Assembly: GCA_020633295.1 (NCBI GenBank)
Contig: JACKDW010000001.1
Coordinates: 1,213,828 to 1,277,827 of the forward strand
Direction: 5' to 3'
Source: Myxococcales bacterium
Lineage (GTDB): Bacteria > Myxococcota_A > Polyangia > Nannocystales > Nannocystaceae
DNA: 64,000 nucleotides
Within the stretch, counting starts at the first letter, position 1. Each line of letters starts with the position of its first letter. Of this stretch, positions 857 to 60,045 are shown one piece after another. A program made the position numbers and the translations under genes. The notes below the pieces were generated by a model. The model was not told the origin of the DNA. It was given only the letters and a program-made list of their open reading frames with translations, and ran no database searches.

Positions 857-3800
857 GTGCGCGATTCGAGGTACCCTCACACGGTGCGTGATCCGCTGTC
901 CGGCGATGCGCCCGCGCCGCCCGAACTCGATCTCGAGGCGGATCGCCTGCGCGCGCTCATGCGCGCCAGCGTGTTCAAGCAGAAGCATCAACCCGTGACG
1001 ATCGGGCGCTTCGAGATCGTCCGCCTGCTCGGCTCAGGCGCGATGGGGATGGTCTACGAGGCGGTCGATCCCCGCGACGACGAGACGGTCGCGATCAAGG
1101 TCCTGCGCAGCCAGAACCCCCGCGCGCTCGCGCTGTTCAAGAAAGAGTTCCGCGCGCTCTCTCGCCTCAGCCACCCCAACCTCGTCACGCTCTACGAGCT
1201 CGGCCGGGCCGGTCAGCGCTACTTCTTCTCGATGGAGCTCGTGCGCGGCATCCCGCTGCAGCGCTACCTCTGGGGCCTCGAGCTGCCGGACACGAGCGAC
1301 CTCGCGGCCCAGACCCCCGAGGCCTCCCAGAGCCTCACGGCGCTCTCGATCTCGCCGGTCACCGACTTCGCGCGCCTGCGCGACGTCTTCGGGCAGCTGT
1401 GCGCCGGCGTCTCGGCGCTCCACCAGGCCGGCAAGCTGCACCGCGACATCAAGCCCTCCAACGCGCTCGTCACCGGCAGCGGGCGCGTCGTGCTCATGGA
1501 CTTCGGCTTCGTCAGCGAGCAGGGCCAGGGCGCGCTCGAGTCGACCCACGGGAACATGGTCGTAGGGACACCCGCGTTCATGTCGCCCGAGCAGGCCCGC
1601 GCCGCGCCGCCCTCGCCGACGAGCGACTGGTACAGCGTCGGCGCGGCGCTCTACATGGTGCTGACCGGCCAGCCGCCGTTCTTCGGCCTCAACCTCGCCG
1701 ACATGATGCAGGCCAAGCAGACGCGCCTGCCGATCGCGCCGCGCCTGCTCGTCAACGGCATCCCCGAGGACATCGCCGCGCTGTGCGTCGGCCTGCTCGC
1801 GCCGGACCCAAAGAACAGGCCAGACGAGCGCGCGGTGTTCCGCGTGTTCAGCAAGGACGGCGAGCGCGCCCCCGGCATGTCGCTGCGCGCGCGGGCTCGC
1901 GACGCCGCGGCCGCGATGCCGCTCGTCGGCGGCGGCGGGGTCGACCTCCGCGCCGGGCTCGTCGGCCGCGACGCCGAGCTCGCGGCGCTGCGCGAGGCCT
2001 ACGCGCGCGTCGAGGGCACCTCGGGACAGGTTCAACCAACCGCGGTGTTCGTCACGAGCCGCGCCGGCCTGGGCAAGACGACGCTGCTGCGCCGGTTCAC
2101 GAGCGAGCTGCGCGACGCCGGCGAGGCCGTGGTGCTGAAGACGCGCTGCTACGAGCGCGACACCATGCAGCTCAAGGCGCTCGACGGCCTCGTCGACGCG
2201 CTCGCCCGACACCTCAAGCAGCTCCCCGAGCCCGAGCTGCGCGCGCTGCTCTCGGCCGACGTGAACGCGCTCGTCGCCCAGTTCCCCGCGCTGCTGCAGG
2301 TCCGCGCGCTCGCGGGTCGCGAGCCCGCCGCGCTCGACCGACGCGAGCTGCAGCCGCGCGCGCTCGCGGCCCTGCGCGAGATCCTGCAGCGGCTCGGCGA
2401 GCGCGCCCCGCTGGTCGTCTGGGTCGACGATCTGCAGTGGGGTGACGTCGACAGCGTCGCGCTGCTCGTCGAGCTGCTCGACCCGCGCGAGCGCGCGACG
2501 CCGCGCGTGCTCCTGCTCGCCAGCTACCGCAGCGAGGACGCCGCGCGCAGCCCCGCGCTCGAGCCGCTGCAGCGGCTCGCCGAGGACCCCGCGCGCGCGG
2601 CCCACGTCACGCGCCTCGAGCTCACGCCGCTCGACGAGGACGCGTGCATGGCGATCGCCGAGCGCCTGCTCGCCGTGCGGGCGCCCGACGCCGCCGACGA
2701 CACCGCCCAGGCCATCGCCCGCGAGGCCCAGGGCAGCCCGCTGTTCGTGCACGAGCTCGTGCGCTTCGTCGAGCGCGAGGTCGCGGTCGCGCAGGCTGAC
2801 GGCCGGCGCCCGCACGTCTCGCTCGAGGCGCTGCTGCACGTGCGCGTCGCCCAGCTGCCGAGGCGGATGCGGCGGCTGCTCGCGCTCGTCGCGGTCGCCG
2901 GCCGCCCGATCGAGCTCTCGCTCGCGCTCGCGGCCGCCGAGATCCGCGAGGACGCGCGCGCGGTCGTCCGTCGCCTCGACAACGAGAACCTCGTGATCGC
3001 GCGCGAGCGCGACGGCGTCACGATCCTCGACACCCAGGAGCGCGTGCGCGCGGCCGCGGTCGCGCAGCTCGACGGCGTCACGCTGCGCGCCCACCACGAG
3101 CGCCTCGCCGAGATCTACGCGGCCGCCGACGCGCCCGATCACGTCATCCTCGCCGAGCACCTGCGCGCCGCCGGGCAGCTCACGCAGGCGCGCGCGCACA
3201 TCATCGCCGCCGCGCGCCAGGCCGCCGCCGCCGGCGATCACGATCAGGCCGCCGAGCACTATCACTTCGCGATCGAGCTGTCCGCGGACGACCCGGACGA
3301 GACCGAGCGCCTGCGCCTGCAGCTCGCGGACGTGCTCGCCCGCTGCGGCCGCTGGACGCTCGCCGCCGACACCTACGTCGACCTCTCGCGCGGGCAGCCC
3401 GGCGCCGACCCGCGCCTGTACGCGCGCGCGGCCGCGCTCATGCTCGCGCAGGGCATCACCAACATCGGCCGCGTCATGCTGATCACGGGCATGCGCGAGG
3501 CCAACCTGCGCCCGCCCGGCGCGGCTCGTGTCGTCCGCTGGCTGCGCCGCGGCAGCGCCAAGCTGCGCGGCTACGAATTCGAAGCGCGCCTGCCGTCGAC
3601 GCTCGCGCCCGAGGCCGCGGCCCGCGTCGACGTGCTCGAGGCCGGCGCCGTCGGGCTCGCGCCCACCGACCTCGACGCCGCCGAGGATCTCCAGGCTCGT
3701 CACCTGCGGAGCGCGCTCGACCTCGGGGACCCGCGCCGGGTCGCCCGCGCGCTCGCCCTCGAGGCGCTGACCGAGGCGCGTCGCGGCGTCGACGGGCGCG

Positions 3801-5101
3801 CGCGCGTGCGCGCCCTCCTCACCCGCGCCGATGAGCTGCTCGTCGCGGCCGGCGCGTCGGCGGCCGTGGCCGCGTCGCCCTCCGACGCTTCCTCCCACGC
3901 TTCCTCCCACGCTTCCTCCCACGCTTCCTCCGACTCGTCGCTCCGACCTCGAGCTCCGACGCGCACGACGACCTCCCTGTCGTCGACGGACGACGAGGCC
4001 GTCGGCGCGTCGGCGGCGACGCGCGAGGTGACCGCCGCGCGCCTGCGGCTGCGGACGATCGAGACGCTTACGCACGCGCTGCAGGGTGATCTCGACGCGG
4101 CGATCGTGGGCTGCGAGGCGTGCGAGTCGGCGCTGCTCGAGTCGTGCCCCGACGACGCGTGGGGGCTGACCGAGCTGCGCCGCGCGCGGCTCGACTGCCT
4201 GCGCCGCGCCGGGCTGTTCACCGAGCTGCGAGCGCAGCGCGACCGCGTCGCCGCGCTCGCGCAGGCGGTCGAGAGCCGCGAGCTCAAGGCCATGAGCCGG
4301 CTCGCGGATGTCTGGCTCGCGCTCGCGGGCGCGGCCGCCGACGAGGCCGCGCGCTGGCTCGACGAGGCGCGCGCGCACTGGACGATCCGCAGCCCGAGCG
4401 TGCCGCTGGCGGAGGTGCTGATCGCCGAGGTCCACGTCGCGCTCGCGCGCCGCGACGTCGACGCGGCCGCGCGCGCGCTCGCCGACGCCTGGTCGCAGCT
4501 CTCCGGCAGCACGCTGTGGCGCGTGCAGCAGCTCCGCGTCGACGCGCTGTTCGCCCGCGCGCTCTGCAGCGTCACCCGCCACGTGAGTGACATGACCTCT
4601 CAGTCACGTCGCGCGGCCGAGCGCGACCTCGCGGCGCTCGCCCAGGAGGACTACCCCGGCGCGGCCGGCCTCGCCGCGCTGCCCTCCGCCTCGCTGCTGG
4701 TCGCGACGGGCGCGCGCGAGCGGGCGGCGGCGGAGCTCGCCGCGGCGATCACCACGCTCGACAACGCGGGCCTGCGCCTGCACGCGCGCGCGTCGCCCAC
4801 GCGCGCGCGCGCGCGTGCTCGCGAGCGGCGAGCGCGACTGCGTCGTCGGCGTGCGCTCGCTCGGCGTGCGCGCCCCGGTCGAGCTCTCGGAGCGGCTCGT
4901 GCCGCTGTCGCGCGCGCTCGCGGGCTGAACCACGTCACGACGCGCGCGGCTCATCGACGTCGGCGTCGGCGGCGGCGGGCTCCGAGCGCACCGACCGACG
5001 CGCACCGATCGACGCGTCCCCGAGCCCCGACGCGCGTCGCCATCTCGCCTCGCGGTCATCAACCCGATTCACGCGCGAGCGCACGCCGGCGCTGGACGTG
5101 A
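857..5101 (+). CDS. Serine/threonine protein kinase fused to a P-loop NTPase (AAA/STAND-like) and a long helical/TPR-like regulatory region
   Basis: GTG 857, with an alternative ATG at 959. Kinase motifs LGSGAMGMVYEA (Gly loop), AIKVL (Lys), HRDIKPSNALV (catalytic loop), DFG, and GTPAFMSPEQ (activation segment). Walker A at SRAGLGKTTLLRRF. The last ~60 codons in this frame are Arg-rich junk. The plausible C-terminus continues in the +1 frame to TGA 4926-4928 after a (GC)n tract at 4801-4815 (see findings). Confidence 0.85.
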   Translation: MRDSRYPHTVRDPLSGDAPAPPELDLEADRLRALMRASVFKQKHQPVTIGRFEIVRLLGSGAMGMVYEAVDPRDDETVAIKVLRSQNPRALALFKKEFRALSRLSHPNLVTLYELGRAGQRYFFSMELVRGIPLQRYLWGLELPDTSDLAAQTPEASQSLTALSISPVTDFARLRDVFGQLCAGVSALHQAGKLHRDIKPSNALVTGSGRVVLMDFGFVSEQGQGALESTHGNMVVGTPAFMSPEQARAAPPSPTSDWYSVGAALYMVLTGQPPFFGLNLADMMQAKQTRLPIAPRLLVNGIPEDIAALCVGLLAPDPKNRPDERAVFRVFSKDGERAPGMSLRARARDAAAAMPLVGGGGVDLRAGLVGRDAELAALREAYARVEGTSGQVQPTAVFVTSRAGLGKTTLLRRFTSELRDAGEAVVLKTRCYERDTMQLKALDGLVDALARHLKQLPEPELRALLSADVNALVAQFPALLQVRALAGREPAALDRRELQPRALAALREILQRLGERAPLVVWVDDLQWGDVDSVALLVELLDPRERATPRVLLLASYRSEDAARSPALEPLQRLAEDPARAAHVTRLELTPLDEDACMAIAERLLAVRAPDAADDTAQAIAREAQGSPLFVHELVRFVEREVAVAQADGRRPHVSLEALLHVRVAQLPRRMRRLLALVAVAGRPIELSLALAAAEIREDARAVVRRLDNENLVIARERDGVTILDTQERVRAAAVAQLDGVTLRAHHERLAEIYAAADAPDHVILAEHLRAAGQLTQARAHIIAAARQAAAAGDHDQAAEHYHFAIELSADDPDETERLRLQLADVLARCGRWTLAADTYVDLSRGQPGADPRLYARAAALMLAQGITNIGRVMLITGMREANLRPPGAARVVRWLRRGSAKLRGYEFEARLPSTLAPEAAARVDVLEAGAVGLAPTDLDAAEDLQARHLRSALDLGDPRRVARALALEALTEARRGVDGRARVRALLTRADELLVAAGASAAVAASPSDASSHASSHASSHASSDSSLRPRAPTRTTTSLSSTDDEAVGASAATREVTAARLRLRTIETLTHALQGDLDAAIVGCEACESALLESCPDDAWGLTELRRARLDCLRRAGLFTELRAQRDRVAALAQAVESRELKAMSRLADVWLALAGAAADEAARWLDEARAHWTIRSPSVPLAEVLIAEVHVALARRDVDAAARALADAWSQLSGSTLWRVQQLRVDALFARALCSVTRHVSDMTSQSRRAAERDLAALAQEDYPGAAGLAALPSASLLVATGARERAAAELAAAITTLDNAGLRLHARASPTRARARARERRARLRRRRALARRARPGRALGAARAAVARARGLNHVTTRAAHRRRRRRRRAPSAPTDAHRSTRPRAPTRVAISPRGHQPDSRASARRRWT
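3887..3934 (+). repeat. 12-bp tandem repeat (gcttcctcccac) x4, last copy imperfect, encoding (SHAS)n inside the kinase gene
   Basis: Direct reading of 3887-3934. The translation shows SHASSHASSHASS. Confidence 0.8.
4801..4815. repeat. (GC)7-8 dinucleotide tract at the point where the kinase reading frame appears to shift
   Basis: gcgcgcgcgcgcgcg read directly. Frame 2 upstream is protein-like and frame 0 downstream is protein-like (VLASGERDCVVGVRSLGVRAPVELSERLVPLSRALAG, then stop). Confidence 0.7.
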
Positions 5102-5410
5102 CGCTCGCGCGCGACGATCGCGAGCACCTCGCGCTCGCGGCGTTCGGGACCGACGACCCCTGTTCGCCGCTGCGCTGGCGGGGGCCACTCGCCGACGCGC
5201 GCCGGGTCGCGAGCGCGGCCATTTCGAGATGTTCCATAGGTCAGCTCCACACGCGCGCCCACACGATCGCCGCGCTCAGGGCGACCGCCCGCGCCAGGGC
5301 CCGCGCCGCCGATCGGGTCAGAACCGCCGTCACGCCCGGCAGCGCGCCGTTCACGCGAACGCCGCGGGAGGCCCGTGACGCGCTGCGCTATCCGGGGTAG
5401 CCTTCGCGCG

Positions 5411-6064
5411 ATGGAGGACGATTTTGCTCTTCTCGACAAGTGGCGCGCGGGCGACCTCGACGCGGGGAGCGACCTGTTTGATCGCCACTTCGAGAGCATT
5501 CACCGGTTCCTGCGCAACAAGGTCGGGGACGACACTGACGAGGTGATGCAGCGCACCCTGCTCGCCTGCGTCGAGAGCCGCGACCGGTTCCGCGGCGCCT
5601 CCAGCTTTCGCACCTTCCTGTTCGGCGTCGCGCGCCTCGAGCTGCTCTCGCACTACCGCCGCAAGCGCAAGCTCGACGCCCACGTCGGCTTCGAATCGCG
5701 CTCCTTCTACGACCTCGACCCGTCCCCCAGCACCATCGTCGCCCGCCACATGGAGCAGCGGCTGCTGCTCGAGGCGCTGCGCAGGCTCCCCGTCGACCTC
5801 CAGATCGCGCTCGAGCTGCACTACTGGGAGGCGATGTCCGCGACCGAGATCGCGACCGTGCTCGAGATCCCCGCCGGCACCGTCAAGAGCCGCCTGCGCC
5901 GCGCCAAGGAGCTGCTGCGCGAGACCATGAGCCACCTCGCGCTCAACAAGGATCAGCTCGAGAGCACCATGGGCGACCTCGGCGGCTGGGCCAAGTCGCT
6001 CGGCGAGGCGCTGCGCGAGGGCGCCGCGTCCCCGCGTCGAGGCGGGCGCAAGCCGAAGCGCTGA
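5411..6064 (+). CDS. ECF-type RNA polymerase sigma factor (sigma-70 regions 2 and 4)
   Basis: ATG 5411 (MEDDFALLDKW...). Region 2-like FRGASSFRTFLFGVARLELLSHYRRKRK and region 4.2-like helix-turn-helix MSATEIATVLEIPAGTVKSRLRRAKELL. An alternative GTG start at 5375 is possible. Confidence 0.8.
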   Translation: MEDDFALLDKWRAGDLDAGSDLFDRHFESIHRFLRNKVGDDTDEVMQRTLLACVESRDRFRGASSFRTFLFGVARLELLSHYRRKRKLDAHVGFESRSFYDLDPSPSTIVARHMEQRLLLEALRRLPVDLQIALELHYWEAMSATEIATVLEIPAGTVKSRLRRAKELLRETMSHLALNKDQLESTMGDLGGWAKSLGEALREGAASPRRGGRKPKR

Positions 6065-6085: not shown

Positions 6086-6472
6086 ATGACGCGCAGGGAG
6101 CTGATCAAGGCCGTGCAGGACTCCGTCCGCGAGGCGCTGCCCGAGCTGACGCAGCACGACATCGCCACGGTCGTCGACGCCGCCTTCGAGCAGATCGCGA
6201 CCGCCATGCGCGATGACGGCCGCTACGCGCACCCCGGCTTCGGCACCTTCTCGGTTCGCCGCCTCGCGCCGCGGCCTGGCTTCAACCCGCGCACCGGCGA
6301 GCGAATCCAGGTGCGCGCCTCGACCTCCGTGCGCTTCTCCGCCTCGCGCTCGCTCGTGGAGCGCCTCGGCGTCGCGCGTGCGCCCAGCGACCACGCGGAC
6401 GCGCGCGACCTCGAGAGCGACCTCGAGAGCGACCTCGAGAGCGACCTCGAGAGCGACCTCGAGAGCGACTAG
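6086..6472 (+). CDS. HU/IHF-family nucleoid DNA-binding protein with an acidic C-terminal (DLES)5 repeat tail
   Basis: ATG 6086 preceded by GGAGAG, Shine-Dalgarno (SD)-like ribosome-binding sequence, 6 nt upstream. HU-fold motifs ELIKAV, GFGTFSVRRLAPRPGFNPRTGERIQVRASTSVRFSAS. Confidence 0.85.
   Translation: MTRRELIKAVQDSVREALPELTQHDIATVVDAAFEQIATAMRDDGRYAHPGFGTFSVRRLAPRPGFNPRTGERIQVRASTSVRFSASRSLVERLGVARAPSDHADARDLESDLESDLESDLESDLESD
6407..6466 (+). repeat. Perfect 12-bp tandem repeat (gacctcgagagc) x5 encoding DLES x5 at the C-terminus of the HU-like protein
   Basis: Direct reading of 6407-6466. Confidence 0.9.
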
Positions 6473-29518: not shown

Positions 29519-30775
29519 GTGTTCTCTCGTCGGACGTCGTGGGACTCGACCCCCGGCGCGCTCGCGCAGGCGATCGCGCGCGCGCGCGCGGACGACACGG
29601 GCGCGCCGCTGCTGGACCTCACCTGCTCGAACCCGACCGCGGTCGGCCTCCACCCCGATCCGAACGAGATCCGCGCGGCGCTCGACCGCGCCTACGACCC
29701 CCGCTACACGCCGGACCCGCTCGGCAGCCTGCGCGCGCGCGAGGCCGTGCTCGACTACTACCGGCGCCGGCACGCGCTCACGCCTGACCTGACGCCCGCG
29801 CGCGTCTGCCTGTGCGCCGGCACGAGCGAGGCCTACGCCAACCTCCTGGCCGTCCTGTGTGACCCCGGGGACGTCGTGCTCGTGCCGCGCCCGGGCTACC
29901 CGCTGCTCGCGTACCTCGCCGATCTCCAGGGCGTCACGCTCGCCCCCTACGCGATCGAGCTCGAGCACGGCGCCTGGCGACTCGACCTCGAAAGCGTCCG
30001 CGAGCAGCTCGCGCGCCCGCGCGAGCGCGCCCGCGTCCGCGCCGTCATCGTCGTCGCGCCCAACAACCCGACCGGCAACTACGTCGACGACCTCGAGCTC
30101 GCCGCGCTCGAGCGACTGTGCCACGAGCGCGAGCTGGCGCTGATCATCGACGAGGTGTTCCACGACTACCCGCTCGACCCCATCGCCGCGCGTCGCGGCT
30201 GCGCGCTCGCGGGCGCGCGCCGCTGCCTGTGCTTCACGCTCTCCGGGCTCTCCAAGGTCGCCGCGCTGCCCCAGCTCAAGCTGTCCTGGCTCGTCGCCCA
30301 CGGCCCGCCCGAGCTGGCGACGGCGGCCATGGGCCGCCTCGAGCTGATCGCCGACAGCTTCTTGAGCGTCGCGAGCCCGGTCCAGCGCGCGCTGCCGGAG
30401 CTGCTGGAGCGCGCTCCCGCGACGCAGGCCCGCGTGCTCGCGCGCACGCGAGACAACCACGCGCACCTGCGCACGTGCTGTCGCCTGGCCGAGAGCGCCG
30501 TGACGCCGCTCGCGGTCGAGGGCGGCTGGACCGCGCTCGTCCGCCTGCCGGCGATCGGGGGGCTCGACGACGCGGGCTGGGTGCTCGATCTGCTGGAGCA
30601 CGCCCGCGTCCTCACGCAGCCCGGGTATCTCTACGATCTCGACGATGGCGGCGGCGCGCGCCCCATGCTCGCGCTCTCGCTGCTGAGTGAACCCAGGCAA
30701 TTCCGCGACGGCCTCACGCGCCTGCTCGCGCGCGTCGCCGCACGCGTCGCCGCAGTGGTAGCCTCGGGCCCATGA
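29519..30775 (+). CDS. Pyridoxal-phosphate-dependent aminotransferase (class I/II fold)
   Basis: GTG 29519. VIVVAPNNPTGNYV and the PLP-lysine region FTLSGLSKVAALPQLKLSW. Confidence 0.8.
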   Translation: MFSRRTSWDSTPGALAQAIARARADDTGAPLLDLTCSNPTAVGLHPDPNEIRAALDRAYDPRYTPDPLGSLRAREAVLDYYRRRHALTPDLTPARVCLCAGTSEAYANLLAVLCDPGDVVLVPRPGYPLLAYLADLQGVTLAPYAIELEHGAWRLDLESVREQLARPRERARVRAVIVVAPNNPTGNYVDDLELAALERLCHERELALIIDEVFHDYPLDPIAARRGCALAGARRCLCFTLSGLSKVAALPQLKLSWLVAHGPPELATAAMGRLELIADSFLSVASPVQRALPELLERAPATQARVLARTRDNHAHLRTCCRLAESAVTPLAVEGGWTALVRLPAIGGLDDAGWVLDLLEHARVLTQPGYLYDLDDGGGARPMLALSLLSEPRQFRDGLTRLLARVAARVAAVVASGP

Positions 30776-55312: not shown

Positions 55313-55454
55313 TCCCGATCGCGCGCCGCGTCGCGCCGGGGGCTCGGACAGCACCGAGTCTCCGGCGTCTCGCTTGGAGCGCGGCCCGGCGCGCGCGCGC
55401 GCGCGTCGACCTCGGGTGGACGAGCCCTCGATCGGCGCGGTAGGACAGCCCGAC

Positions 55455-57591: not shown

Positions 57592-60045
57592 ATGCGCCGG
57601 GCCCCCGCAGGCGCGGCCGGCGGACCCGCCCGCCGGCGCGGCGAAGACGAGGTTGTCGCCGGTGAGCCGCTCGCGTCATCGCTGCTGGCGCACCTCGGGC
57701 CGACGAACACGGGCAAGACGCACCGCGCGATCACGCGCATGCTCGAGCACCCCACGGGGATGATCGGGCTGCCGCTGCGGCTGCTCGCGCGCGAGGTCTA
57801 CGACCGGGTCACGGCGCAGGTCGGCGAGGCGCTCGTCGCCCTCGTCACGGGCGAGGAGAAGCGCGTCCCGGCGCGCCCGCGCTACTGGGTGTGCACCGTC
57901 GAGTCGATGCCGACGGACCGCGTGGTCGACTTCCTCGCGGTCGACGAGATCCAGCTCGCGGCCCACCGCCAGCGCGGCCACACCTTCACCGAGCGCCTGC
58001 TGCACGCGCGCGGCCGCGTCGAGACCTGGTTCCTCGGCGCCGACACGATGCGCCCGCTGATCGAGCAGCTCACGCCGACCGCGACGCTCGAGCGCCACCC
58101 GCGGCTGTCGCGGCTGCGCTACGCGGGCGCGAGCTCGCTCAGCGGGCTGCCCCCGCGCTCGGCCGTGATCGCGTTCTCGCTCCCCGAGGTGTACGAGCTG
58201 GCGGAGCGCGTGCGCTCGCGCCACGGCGGCGCTGCGGTCGTCCTCGGCGCCCTGTCTCCCAGGACACGTAACGCCCAGGTCGCGATGTACCAGTCCGGCG
58301 AGGTGCAGTACATGGTCGCGACCGACGCGATCGGCATGGGCCTCAACATGGACATCGATCGCGTGGCGCTCGCGTCGCTGCACAAGTATGACGGTCGCGA
58401 GCGGCGCCCGCTCGAGCTGGCCGAGCTCGCGCAGGTCGTCGGGCGCGCGGGTCGCTACACCCGCGACGGGAGCTTCGGCACGCTGACCGAGGTCGGCGGG
58501 CTGCCGCCGCGCGTCGTCACGGCGCTCGAGCGGCACCGCTTCGCGCCCGAGCGCCGGCTCGTGTGGCGCAACCACGCGCTCGACTTCTCCTCCGTCGACG
58601 CGCTCATCGCCAGCCTCAGCGCCCGACCGCGCGACCGCTCGCTGCGCCGAGTCGAGCACGCGGACGACTTCGAGGCGCTCGTGCAGCTGGCCAAGCGACC
58701 CGAGGTCCGCGCGCGCGCGCGCGGACCCGAACGCGTCGCGCTGCTGTGGGACGTGTGCCGGATCCCCGACTTCCGCAAGCTGCTCGAGGGCAGCCACGTC
58801 GGGCTGCTCGCCGCGATCTACGAGCAGCTCTCGGGGCCGCGGCGCGCCCTCGAGACCGACTGGATCGCCGAGCGGATCGCCCGGCTCGACACGATCGAGG
58901 GCGACCTCGACGCGCTGATGAATCGCATCGCGTTCACGCGCACGTGGACGTACGTCTCCAACCACGCGCGCTGGCTCGCGGACGCGCGGCACTGGCAGGA
59001 GCTCACGCGCGCGCTCGAGGATCGCCTGAGCGACGCGCTGCACGAGCGCCTGACGCAGCGCTTCGTCGAGCCCGGCGCGGGCGCGCGTAGGGGACGACGC
59101 GCGCGCCCGCGCTCGCGCGCGCCGCAGACCGACGACACGCACGCGCGCGCGCTCGAGGACGGGCCCGACGACGGCCCGTTCGCGGCCCTGCGCGCGCTCG
59201 GGAGCCTGCTGCCCGACGCGACCGGCGACGGCGACACGACCGACGGCCACGCGCTCCGCGAGCACGAGCTGCACGCGCTCGTCGACGCGGGCCACGAGGC
59301 GTTCACGCTCGACGCGGCGGGGCTCGTGCGCCGCCGCGACGACGATCGCCCGCTCGCCTGGCTCACCGCCGGCGCCCACCTGCTGCGCCCGGAGCTGCGC
59401 GTGCGCGACGAGCTCGCCAGCGCGGGGGGCCGCGCCCGCCTGCACCGGCGCCTGCACGCCTGGACCATCGACGCGATCGGCGAGCTGCTCGAGCCGCTGC
59501 GACGTCCCGCGCCCGACGACGCCAGCCCCGCGCTGCGCGGGCTGCTGTACCAGCTCGAGCAGGGGCTGGGCTGCGTCGGCCGAGCGTCCGCCCGGGCCCA
59601 GCTCGAGCACCTCACCCCGCGCGATCACGACGAGCTGCGCGCCCGCGGCGTGCAGCTCGGCCTGGGCTGGGTCTACCTCCCACGCCTGCTGCGTCCGACC
59701 TGGGTGCGGCGGCGCTTCGCGCTCGCGCTCGCCCACGCCGGGCTGACCTCACCGAGTCGGCCGCGGCTGACCCCGCCTGGACCCGGCGCCGTGTCGCTGG
59801 TGCTCCCGGCCGGCGCCGACGGCCGCGTGTACGAGCGGGCCGGCTTCCCGGTCGTCGGTCCGCGCGCGATTCGAGTCGATCAACTCGAGCGCGCGCGCGC
59901 GGCCCTGGAGACGCGCGCGCAGGAGCCCGACGCGCTGCGGCGCGCGATCTCGGGCTGGCTCGGCACGCCCGGCGCCGAGCTCGACCCGATCCTCGCCGCG
60001 CTCACGGCGAACGGGCGTCGGCGTCGACGTCGGCGGCGCGCGTGA
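57592..60045 (+). CDS. Superfamily-2 ATP-dependent helicase, Suv3-like
   Basis: ATG 57592. Walker A GPTNTGKTH, DEIQ box (AVDEIQLA), and helicase C-terminal motifs (VATDAIGMGLNM, QVVGRAGR). Long Arg/Ala-rich C-terminal extension. Confidence 0.8.
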   Translation: MRRAPAGAAGGPARRRGEDEVVAGEPLASSLLAHLGPTNTGKTHRAITRMLEHPTGMIGLPLRLLAREVYDRVTAQVGEALVALVTGEEKRVPARPRYWVCTVESMPTDRVVDFLAVDEIQLAAHRQRGHTFTERLLHARGRVETWFLGADTMRPLIEQLTPTATLERHPRLSRLRYAGASSLSGLPPRSAVIAFSLPEVYELAERVRSRHGGAAVVLGALSPRTRNAQVAMYQSGEVQYMVATDAIGMGLNMDIDRVALASLHKYDGRERRPLELAELAQVVGRAGRYTRDGSFGTLTEVGGLPPRVVTALERHRFAPERRLVWRNHALDFSSVDALIASLSARPRDRSLRRVEHADDFEALVQLAKRPEVRARARGPERVALLWDVCRIPDFRKLLEGSHVGLLAAIYEQLSGPRRALETDWIAERIARLDTIEGDLDALMNRIAFTRTWTYVSNHARWLADARHWQELTRALEDRLSDALHERLTQRFVEPGAGARRGRRARPRSRAPQTDDTHARALEDGPDDGPFAALRALGSLLPDATGDGDTTDGHALREHELHALVDAGHEAFTLDAAGLVRRRDDDRPLAWLTAGAHLLRPELRVRDELASAGGRARLHRRLHAWTIDAIGELLEPLRRPAPDDASPALRGLLYQLEQGLGCVGRASARAQLEHLTPRDHDELRARGVQLGLGWVYLPRLLRPTWVRRRFALALAHAGLTSPSRPRLTPPGPGAVSLVLPAGADGRVYERAGFPVVGPRAIRVDQLERARAALETRAQEPDALRRAISGWLGTPGAELDPILAALTANGRRRRRRRRA

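Follow-up and report, generated by a model that had tools for sequence, protein, structure and literature searches.

The 64-kb window analyzed here is a stretch of 64,000 nucleotides (nt) from contig JACKDW010000001.1 of a Myxococcales bacterium. Its + strand carries a gene for a STAND-type Ser/Thr kinase whose 3′ end lies in a different reading frame from the rest of the gene. The open reading frame (ORF) called for this gene runs through an alternating C/G stretch near position 4800. Beyond this stretch the protein continues in the +1 frame and its authentic end is almost certainly the TGA at 4928, while the called frame reads on into a false, Arg-rich tail. The switch of frame, the homology of the +1 tail and the conserved stop of that tail are directly observed. 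The case is a frameshifted gene end of a known, ordinary kind. For its cause we lean toward an uncorrected sequencing or assembly indel. The relevant features are as follows, with reading frames given as the position of codon starts modulo 3 (mod 3).

857..5101, + strand: ORF as called mechanically, 1414 codons, start GTG 857, stop codon 5099–5101
857..4789, + strand: kinase gene body, codon starts mod 3 = 2, with Pkinase, AAA_16 and an all-helical TPR-like C-terminal sensor region
4783–4792, + strand: (CG)5 tract, where the frame may first change, from mod 3 = 2 to mod 3 = 1
4792..4814, + strand: short segment with its best ortholog match in the third frame (mod 3 = 1)
4800–4815, + strand: (CG)8 tract, 16 nt, reading cgcgcgcgcgcgcgcg; here the reading frame becomes mod 3 = 0 for good
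4815..4928, + strand: authentic C-terminus, 37 codons (VLASGERDCVVGVRSLGVRAPVELSERLVPLSRALAG) plus TGA at 4926–4928, frame mod 3 = 0
4929..5101, + strand: non-coding DNA read through by the shifted frame; supplies the far end of the spurious Arg-rich tail as far as the called stop (5099–5101)

Frame switch at the 3′ end of the kinase gene

The initial annotation had proposed that a 1414-residue ORF changes frame at the dinucleotide tract gcgcgcgcgcgcgcg (4801–4815). The ORF is present at 857..5101 and so is the tract, which a further c at 4800 extends to (CG)8. In the called frame the protein reads ...LDNAGLRLHARASPTRARA up to the break and is followed by a tail of 95 residues. The description of this tail as almost pure Arg and Ala captures a strong enrichment but is overstated, as Arg makes up 36% and Ala 22% of it (the gene body has 11% Arg).

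In a high-GC genome no coding signal is stronger than codon-position GC. In the kinase body the GC fractions at the first, second and third codon positions (GC1/2/3) are 0.79/0.52/0.95. Over 4815–4925 the +1 frame keeps this pattern with 0.86/0.54/1.00, while the ORF's own frame gives 1.00/0.84/0.57. Over 4928–5098 the values are 0.75/0.81/0.70, which is non-coding DNA with no codon-position signal. These values, together with the match to the ortholog described below, bear out the claim that the +1 frame is protein-like right after the tract and stops at 4926–4928. Upstream of the tract the same frame is junk, as had also been said; it is Arg/Pro/Ser-rich and contains stop codons, the last of which starts at 4593. 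In a codon-usage log-odds scan trained on the long genes of the window, the mod-2 frame is lost at about 4770–4785. The coding signal of the kinase ORF ends 329 nt before its stop, versus 17–134 nt for the other window genes on both strands, a gap whose measurement is limited by a scan resolution of about 100 nt. The body uses frame mod 3 = 2 and the tail uses mod 3 = 0. Joining them requires −1 nt or +2 nt, so the gain of one GC unit or the loss of 1 nt restores continuity, as proposed. The correct product ending at 4928 would have about 1354–1356 residues if counted from GTG 857 and about 1320–1322 if counted from ATG 959.

Comparison with the ortholog and the kinase family

The genome collection contains one close relative, a contig of a Polyangia metagenome-assembled genome (L001, JAUIKS010000024.1), and no conspecific genome. 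The best tblastn segment to this contig shows 63% identity. L001:4933-8826 is a single uninterrupted ORF; its protein (P0001) shares 69% of residues with the window's protein over 97% of the query. The end of P0001 is ...GERDRVLGLRSLGLRAPVELSEHFVPLSHVLGR and that of the window's +1 frame is GERDCVVGVRSLGVRAPVELSERLVPLSRALAG; the two have equal lengths and their stops align. A longer portion of the P0001 C-terminus reads ...LQLHARVAAHAHARLEDDADGERDRVLGLRSLGLRAPVELSEHFVPLSHVLGR. From the GERD motif to the stop, the +1 frame and the ortholog align without gaps, with 24/33 residues identical and the TGA codons aligned. In BLASTP, the last 110 residues of the ortholog were compared with the three frames of 4700–5101. 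The +1 frame is matched with 27/44 identities (E = 1e-13), whereas the match to the ORF frame lies upstream of the tract only and none is made to the Arg-rich tail. At the DNA level, the blastn alignment of the kinase gene with L001 stops at exactly 4928, and the next similarity begins at 5372, in a gene for an extracytoplasmic function (ECF)-type sigma factor. The aligned tail and stop and this sharp end of homology agree with the earlier proposal that the protein ends near 4928. The C-terminus of the ortholog, named in the initial annotation as the point on which the proposal could fail, speaks in its favor.

The wider family gives the same picture. More distant homologs from Nannocystis and uncultured Myxococcota (42–51% identity) end in ...LH.A...R(L/A)......L...G(V)..P......L.P, and the window has the terminal motif L..G(V)..P......L.P of these STAND kinases in the +1 frame only, as RSLGVRAPVELSERLVPL. 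Against a profile of 27 family C-termini, the tail as written scores −9.8 bits and the repaired versions 40.6–48.0 bits. With P0001 left out of the profile, the repaired versions still reach 18.1–24.2 bits versus −7.3 bits for the tail as written.

Rates of nonsynonymous (dN) and synonymous (dS) substitution between the window and L001 were estimated by the Nei-Gojobori method. Read in the +1 frame, the small sample of 33 tail codons has a dN of 0.17 and a dS of 0.31 (ratio 0.55). The preceding 100–160 codons give a dN of 0.25 and a ratio of 0.60–0.70, and in the two wrong frames the ratios for the tail DNA are 0.83 and 2.1. The +1 tail thus appears to have evolved like the rest of the gene. 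Because its dN/dS is body-like, its GC3 is 1.00 and its stop is kept, the frame break would be either extremely recent or not real.

Word-indexed protein searches with residues 1001–1314 and with the repaired last 140 residues returned no match. P0001 was missed as well, so these empty searches reflect how candidates are selected in Ala-rich sequence and do not show that homologs are lacking. The 37-residue +1 peptide had 0 matches at E ≤ 0.001 in an exhaustive HMMER search, a result that carries no information because the query is too short and representatives are clustered at 50% identity. A second copy of the tract was sought by exact look-ups of the window kinase and one neighbour, by a degenerate DNA pattern (JGI metagenomes) and by a profile-guided scan, with no match in any of them.

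One shift or two

At the break the local GC content is 85%, the 98th percentile of the window, whose overall GC content is 72%. At the position of the (CG)8 tract the ortholog has a short interrupted CG run, cacgcgcgcc. Between the anchors CAC (4781–4783) and GGCGAGCGCGAC (4827–4838) the window has 43 nt and L001 has 48 nt. The best single 5-nt gap leaves 23/43 matches, which 11% of shuffles reach. Two gaps of 1 and 4 nt leave 29/43 matches, which 1% of shuffles reach, and MAFFT gave the same solution. In the two-gap alignment, GCC-CAC-GCG-CGC encodes Ala-His-Ala-Arg as in the ortholog, and the mod 3 = 1 frame reads ARVAHARARA versus ARVAAHAHAR. Over 4792..4814 this third frame gives V-A-H-A-R-A-R-A, to be compared with V-A-A-H-A-H-A-R in the ortholog and S-P-T-R-A-R-A in the ORF frame. 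The block GCCCACGC is common to the window and L001, and L001 reads it as Ala-His.

The possible repairs can also be ranked by score. Removal of one CG unit from each tract (...LHARVAHARARVLASGERD...) is the best repair by the family profile, with 48.0 versus 40.6–40.9 bits; with P0001 left out it scores 24.2 bits versus 18.1–19.4 bits for the other repairs. In BLASTP against the P0001 tail alone, the addition of one base per site comes out on top with 138 bits, ahead of the removal of one CG per tract with 135 bits and of the single-shift repairs with 128–131 bits. From these sequence comparisons, two shifts in the same direction, from frame 2 to 1 near 4790 and from 1 to 0 near 4813, seem more likely than a single shift, short of being established. 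The initial annotation was therefore right in placing the break at the dinucleotide tract, while its single shift may have to be replaced by two, one of them in the (CG)5 tract at 4783–4792. TRF calls a 23-nt 'repeat' at 4786–4836. A duplication is ruled out as its meaning, since the window is shorter than the ortholog there, not longer.

Near-identical strains

Exact look-ups of the two downstream genes retrieved three short metagenome contigs of near-identical strains: L013 (ENA ERZ28656077), L014 (ENA ERZ27309141) and L015 (Logan SRR6747757). Some of the reads behind these contigs may be the same, and sequence at contig ends is not always reliable. From 5073 on, L013 and L015 have 0 substitutions relative to the window and L014 has 1, at 5204; all other differences are indels. 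A deletion of 49 nt (5024–5072) is found in L013 and L014, with substitutions at 5009 and 5021 near it, and a 3-nt CGA indel lies at 5151–5153. Past these differences L013 and L015 are identical to the window over their remaining length, about 1.3–1.5 kb. The 49-nt deletion removes part of the called ORF's tail and its length is not divisible by 3; even near-identical strains therefore do not conserve the Arg-rich tail. With starts at 4988 or 5073, 60–145 nt downstream of the gene end, none of the three contigs extends back to the tract. Such a common break point suggests that short-read assembly has difficulty with the DNA immediately upstream.

Origin of the frame break

In the sequence as written, the frame breaks within the 85%-GC alternating C/G stretch by a net change of −2 or +1 nt. 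This may have been a single event in the (CG)8 tract at 4800–4815 or, somewhat better supported, shifts in both the (CG)5 tract at 4783–4792 and the (CG)8 tract. In the two-shift version, each site would have 1 nt missing or one extra CG unit. Out-of-frame stops are scarce in DNA of 72% GC, so the shifted frame continues for 95 codons, first through the real tail and then through 170 nt of intergenic DNA, and produces the Arg-rich pseudo-tail and the false stop at 5101.

An uncorrected sequencing or assembly indel is, by a modest preference, our explanation of this break, and we place error a little ahead of a real, recent slippage mutation. The probable pair of shifts inside 25 nt points to error, and so do the alternating sequence of 85% GC and the absence of decay in the tail. 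The three short-read contigs, all of which break just downstream, point the same way. The case corresponds to the singleton category of GeneTack (Antonov et al. 2013, PMC3711429), a frame transition seen in one genome whose two halves match one continuous homolog. Nothing essential differs from that category; the particulars here are CG dinucleotide tracts, a position 37 codons from the true stop and maybe two nearby shifts. In the GeneTack survey, singleton frameshifts validated by BLASTp are expected to be mostly sequencing errors (PMC3711429).

Several observations weigh against an error. No other gene in the window has a frame break (both strands, 64 kb, resolution about 100 nt). Alternating-GC tracts of at least 12 nt occur 17 times in the window, and the frame differs across the tract only at 4800–4815. 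Eleven of these 17 lie inside coding sequence and have an equal frame on both sides, including tracts of 16 nt and 15 nt, so that 11 other coding tracts of 12–16 nt keep their frame. With these tracts intact and no other frame break, the assembly is not generally error-prone at GC tracts. The near-identical strains differ by real-looking repeat indels nearby (the 3-nt CGA, a 36-nt change in a variable number tandem repeat (VNTR) and the 49-nt intergenic indel), so genuine slippage polymorphism exists in the population. Frameshifts near the 3′ end of genes are relatively more often true indels (PMC3711429). The preference for two shifts is itself modest, at 5–7 bits in the profile, and comes from one close ortholog.

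If the indel is real, replication slippage in the CG tracts would have produced it recently, and it would be either fixed or polymorphic in the strain. We regard this as a serious alternative, somewhat less probable than an error. Dinucleotide tracts are prone to slippage by slipped-strand mispairing (summarised in PMC3711429). The gain of one CG unit per tract accounts exactly for the frame path 2 to 1 to 0; its reversal is the best-scoring repair. The lack of other frame breaks over 64 kb, the other repeat-length polymorphisms in close strains and the relative enrichment of true indels among 3′-terminal frameshifts (PMC3711429) all fit with it as well. However, a tail with no decay (dN/dS 0.55, GC3 1.00 and an intact, aligned stop) would mean that the event happened extremely recently. 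A two-shift anatomy would require two independent mutations within 25 nt in this short time, which is unparsimonious, and the tail is confidently folded and conserved in the family, so its loss should be selected against. A real indel would swap the last three sensor helices for a basic, probably disordered tail of 95 residues and make the gene an incipient pseudogene or a deregulated allele. It would then be one recent inactivating or deregulating mutation among many paralogous myxobacterial kinases, of local interest only.

The tracts share with simple-sequence-repeat contingency loci a short tandem repeat within an ORF whose unit number sets the frame. Reversible gain and loss of CG units would then toggle the protein between the native sensor cap and the Arg-rich tail. 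Simple-sequence repeats do lie at the frame break ((CG)8 at 4800–4815 and (CG)5 at 4783–4792), and repeat length is polymorphic nearby in the population. We nevertheless consider this origin very unlikely. In contrast to contingency loci, the kinase repeat is not conserved, as the only close ortholog lacks the tract and has cacgcgcgcc there. Its 8 units are short for a dinucleotide switch, and such tracts are common, with 17 in 64 kb at 72% GC, mostly in intact genes. The repeat also lies at the 3′ end of a gene for a cytoplasmic signalling protein, an atypical class; phase variation is usually linked to surface or restriction-modification genes (criteria in PMC3711429). It is just as doubtful that the CG tracts act as a hypermutable switch in the Polyangia lineage and generate heritable on/off or deregulated variants of kinase signalling within a population. 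Such a switch, if true, would amount to a phase-variable cytoplasmic STAND kinase in a soil myxobacterium.

Less likely still, to the point of being barely credible, is that the 1414-residue ORF is correct and that its Arg-rich tail is a genuine, lineage-specific disordered extension. The frame is indeed open to 5101. However, its GC3 is 0.57–0.70 there versus 0.95 in the body, nothing homologous to it exists in L001 past 4928, a near-identical strain has the 49-nt deletion inside it, and a conserved tail exists in another frame. The initial annotation's word artefact is certain for the called stop at 5101 and the Arg-rich tail; for the indel itself, which may be an error or a real recent mutation, the word does not apply with the same certainty.

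We regard programmed recoding as effectively excluded. Known cases of transcriptional slippage involve long A/T runs and not CG dinucleotides. Production of the native protein from the sequence as written, by +1 ribosomal frameshifting or by such slippage, would agree with the intact downstream frame and the +1 direction of the shift and with nothing else. Since the ortholog is unshifted, the position of the shift lacks conservation. Neither a slippery nor a stop/hungry-codon motif is present, and re-pairing in the +1 frame is impossible for CGC/GCG codons. Nor is there a stimulatory structure beyond the effect of composition, as 4770–4845 folds no better than shuffles (DNA fold z = −0.14). 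With the prfB type of programmed +1 frameshift the kinase shares the direction only, and it has no conserved shift site, in-frame stop or slippery codon. Conserved position of a predicted frameshift is used to group frameshifted genes before recoding is called (PMC3711429).

Kinase domains and structure of the native tail

The gene product is a STAND-type Ser/Thr kinase with a kinase domain, an AAA_16 NTPase domain and a TPR-like sensor solenoid. With the Pfam gathering score as the threshold for domain membership, Pkinase (PF00069) covers residues 52–323 with 135.5 bits (cut-off 31.7, 2.9e-39). AAA_16 (PF13191) follows C-terminal to it at residues 368–552 with 74.6 bits (cut-off 32.6, 1.7e-20). 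The translation contains the kinase catalytic motifs LGSGAMGMV, VAIK, HRDIKPSN and DFG, and the AAA_16 domain has Walker A (GLGKTT) and Walker B (VVWVDD) motifs. The approximately 800 residues of the ORF after AAA_16 are Ala/Leu/Arg-rich. No NCBIfam equivalog model scores above its own cut-off with this protein, and some of its homologs are named 'PknK' in the sources.

P0001 starts at a Met that matches ATG 959 of the window (MRASVFK...). From this alignment, the true start is probably ATG 959 and not GTG 857, which would make the protein 34 residues shorter at the N-terminus. Relative to the ortholog, the window kinase has an in-frame insertion of about 168 nt at 3820–4039, a low-complexity linker rich in Ser, Thr and Ala. 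It includes a 12-nt tandem repeat of 4.4 copies at 3879–3931 (ASSH ASSH ASSH...). Codon-position GC looks abnormal across the insertion, and this comes only from the Ser/Thr composition, not from a frame change.

The last 300 residues of the ortholog were modeled with AlphaFold2 from a 12-row alignment. The model is an all-helical solenoid with a predicted local distance difference test score (pLDDT) of 93 and a predicted template modeling score (pTM) of 0.91. Its best fold matches are the TPR domains of Rap proteins (TMq 0.65) and domain III of MalT (1hz4, TMq 0.54), and the modeled fold fits the sensor domain of a STAND NTPase. Among known systems, the protein is closest to STAND signalling NTPases of the MalT type, with TPR-like sensor domains, that are fused to a Hanks-type kinase; it shares with them the combination of Pkinase, AAA_16 and a C-terminal helical solenoid. 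The position of the shift maps inside helix 249–262, which bears an invariant His, and three more confident helices follow past it (266–277, 284–291 and 295–298). Translation of the sequence as written would deprive the sensor domain of its C-terminal cap and add a basic, probably disordered tail. By analogy with MalT-type STAND proteins, the loss of the cap may be expected to inactivate or deregulate the kinase.

The main value of these results is correction of the annotation. The called 1414-residue protein has a false tail of 95 residues and lacks the last three, conserved sensor helices, and its frame needs to be repaired before it is used in domain analysis, structure prediction or family alignments. 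The case also shows how a frameshift at 72% GC, instead of truncating an ORF, silently lengthens it.

Repeats, spurious frames and downstream genes

Alternating-GC sequence is over-represented in the window, with 22 matches to (GC)6 versus 4.6 expected from dinucleotide-preserving shuffles. The longest such tract has 17 nt (55389–55405) and lies in apparently non-coding DNA between two + strand genes. A 16-nt tract is found at a gene start (29575–29590) and another at 58708–58723. Small tandem repeats also follow the kinase gene, namely (TCGGCG)4 at 4954–4977 and a 14-nt repeat of 2.6 copies at 4982–5016. No promoter-like or terminator-like sites were found in 4700–5500.

Other ORFs overlap the gene end. 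The minus-strand ORFs 4604..5062, 4651..4938 and 4935..5237 and the + strand ORF 5098..5400 were rejected, having no coding signal or Pfam match. The + strand frame mod 3 = 1 is open for about 800 nt (4590–5400), spanning the kinase end and the intergenic region, and each of the three near-identical contigs has a partial 'gene' called from it at its edge (L013:2-361, L014:2-364 and L015:2-325). It has no Pfam match and a weak coding signal, and is probably a spurious ORF of high-GC DNA.

The order of the kinase, ECF sigma factor and HU-like genes is syntenic between the window and L001. The sigma factor gene (5375/5411–6064; Sigma70_r2, r4_2 and Sigma70_ECF) lies about 450 nt past the kinase. 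Its 3′ neighbor at 6086–6472 encodes an HU/IHF-type DNA-binding protein of 128 residues (PF00216, 1.3e-21). The C-terminal tail of this protein is encoded by four copies of the 12-nt repeat GCGACCTCGAGA at 6405–6452, which is a VNTR in the tail of a nucleoid protein. L014 has three fewer copies (L014:1357-1380, a 36-nt indel) and a called product of 116 residues. L015 ends at window position 6434 inside the repeat, and its product of 116 residues is truncated by the contig end.

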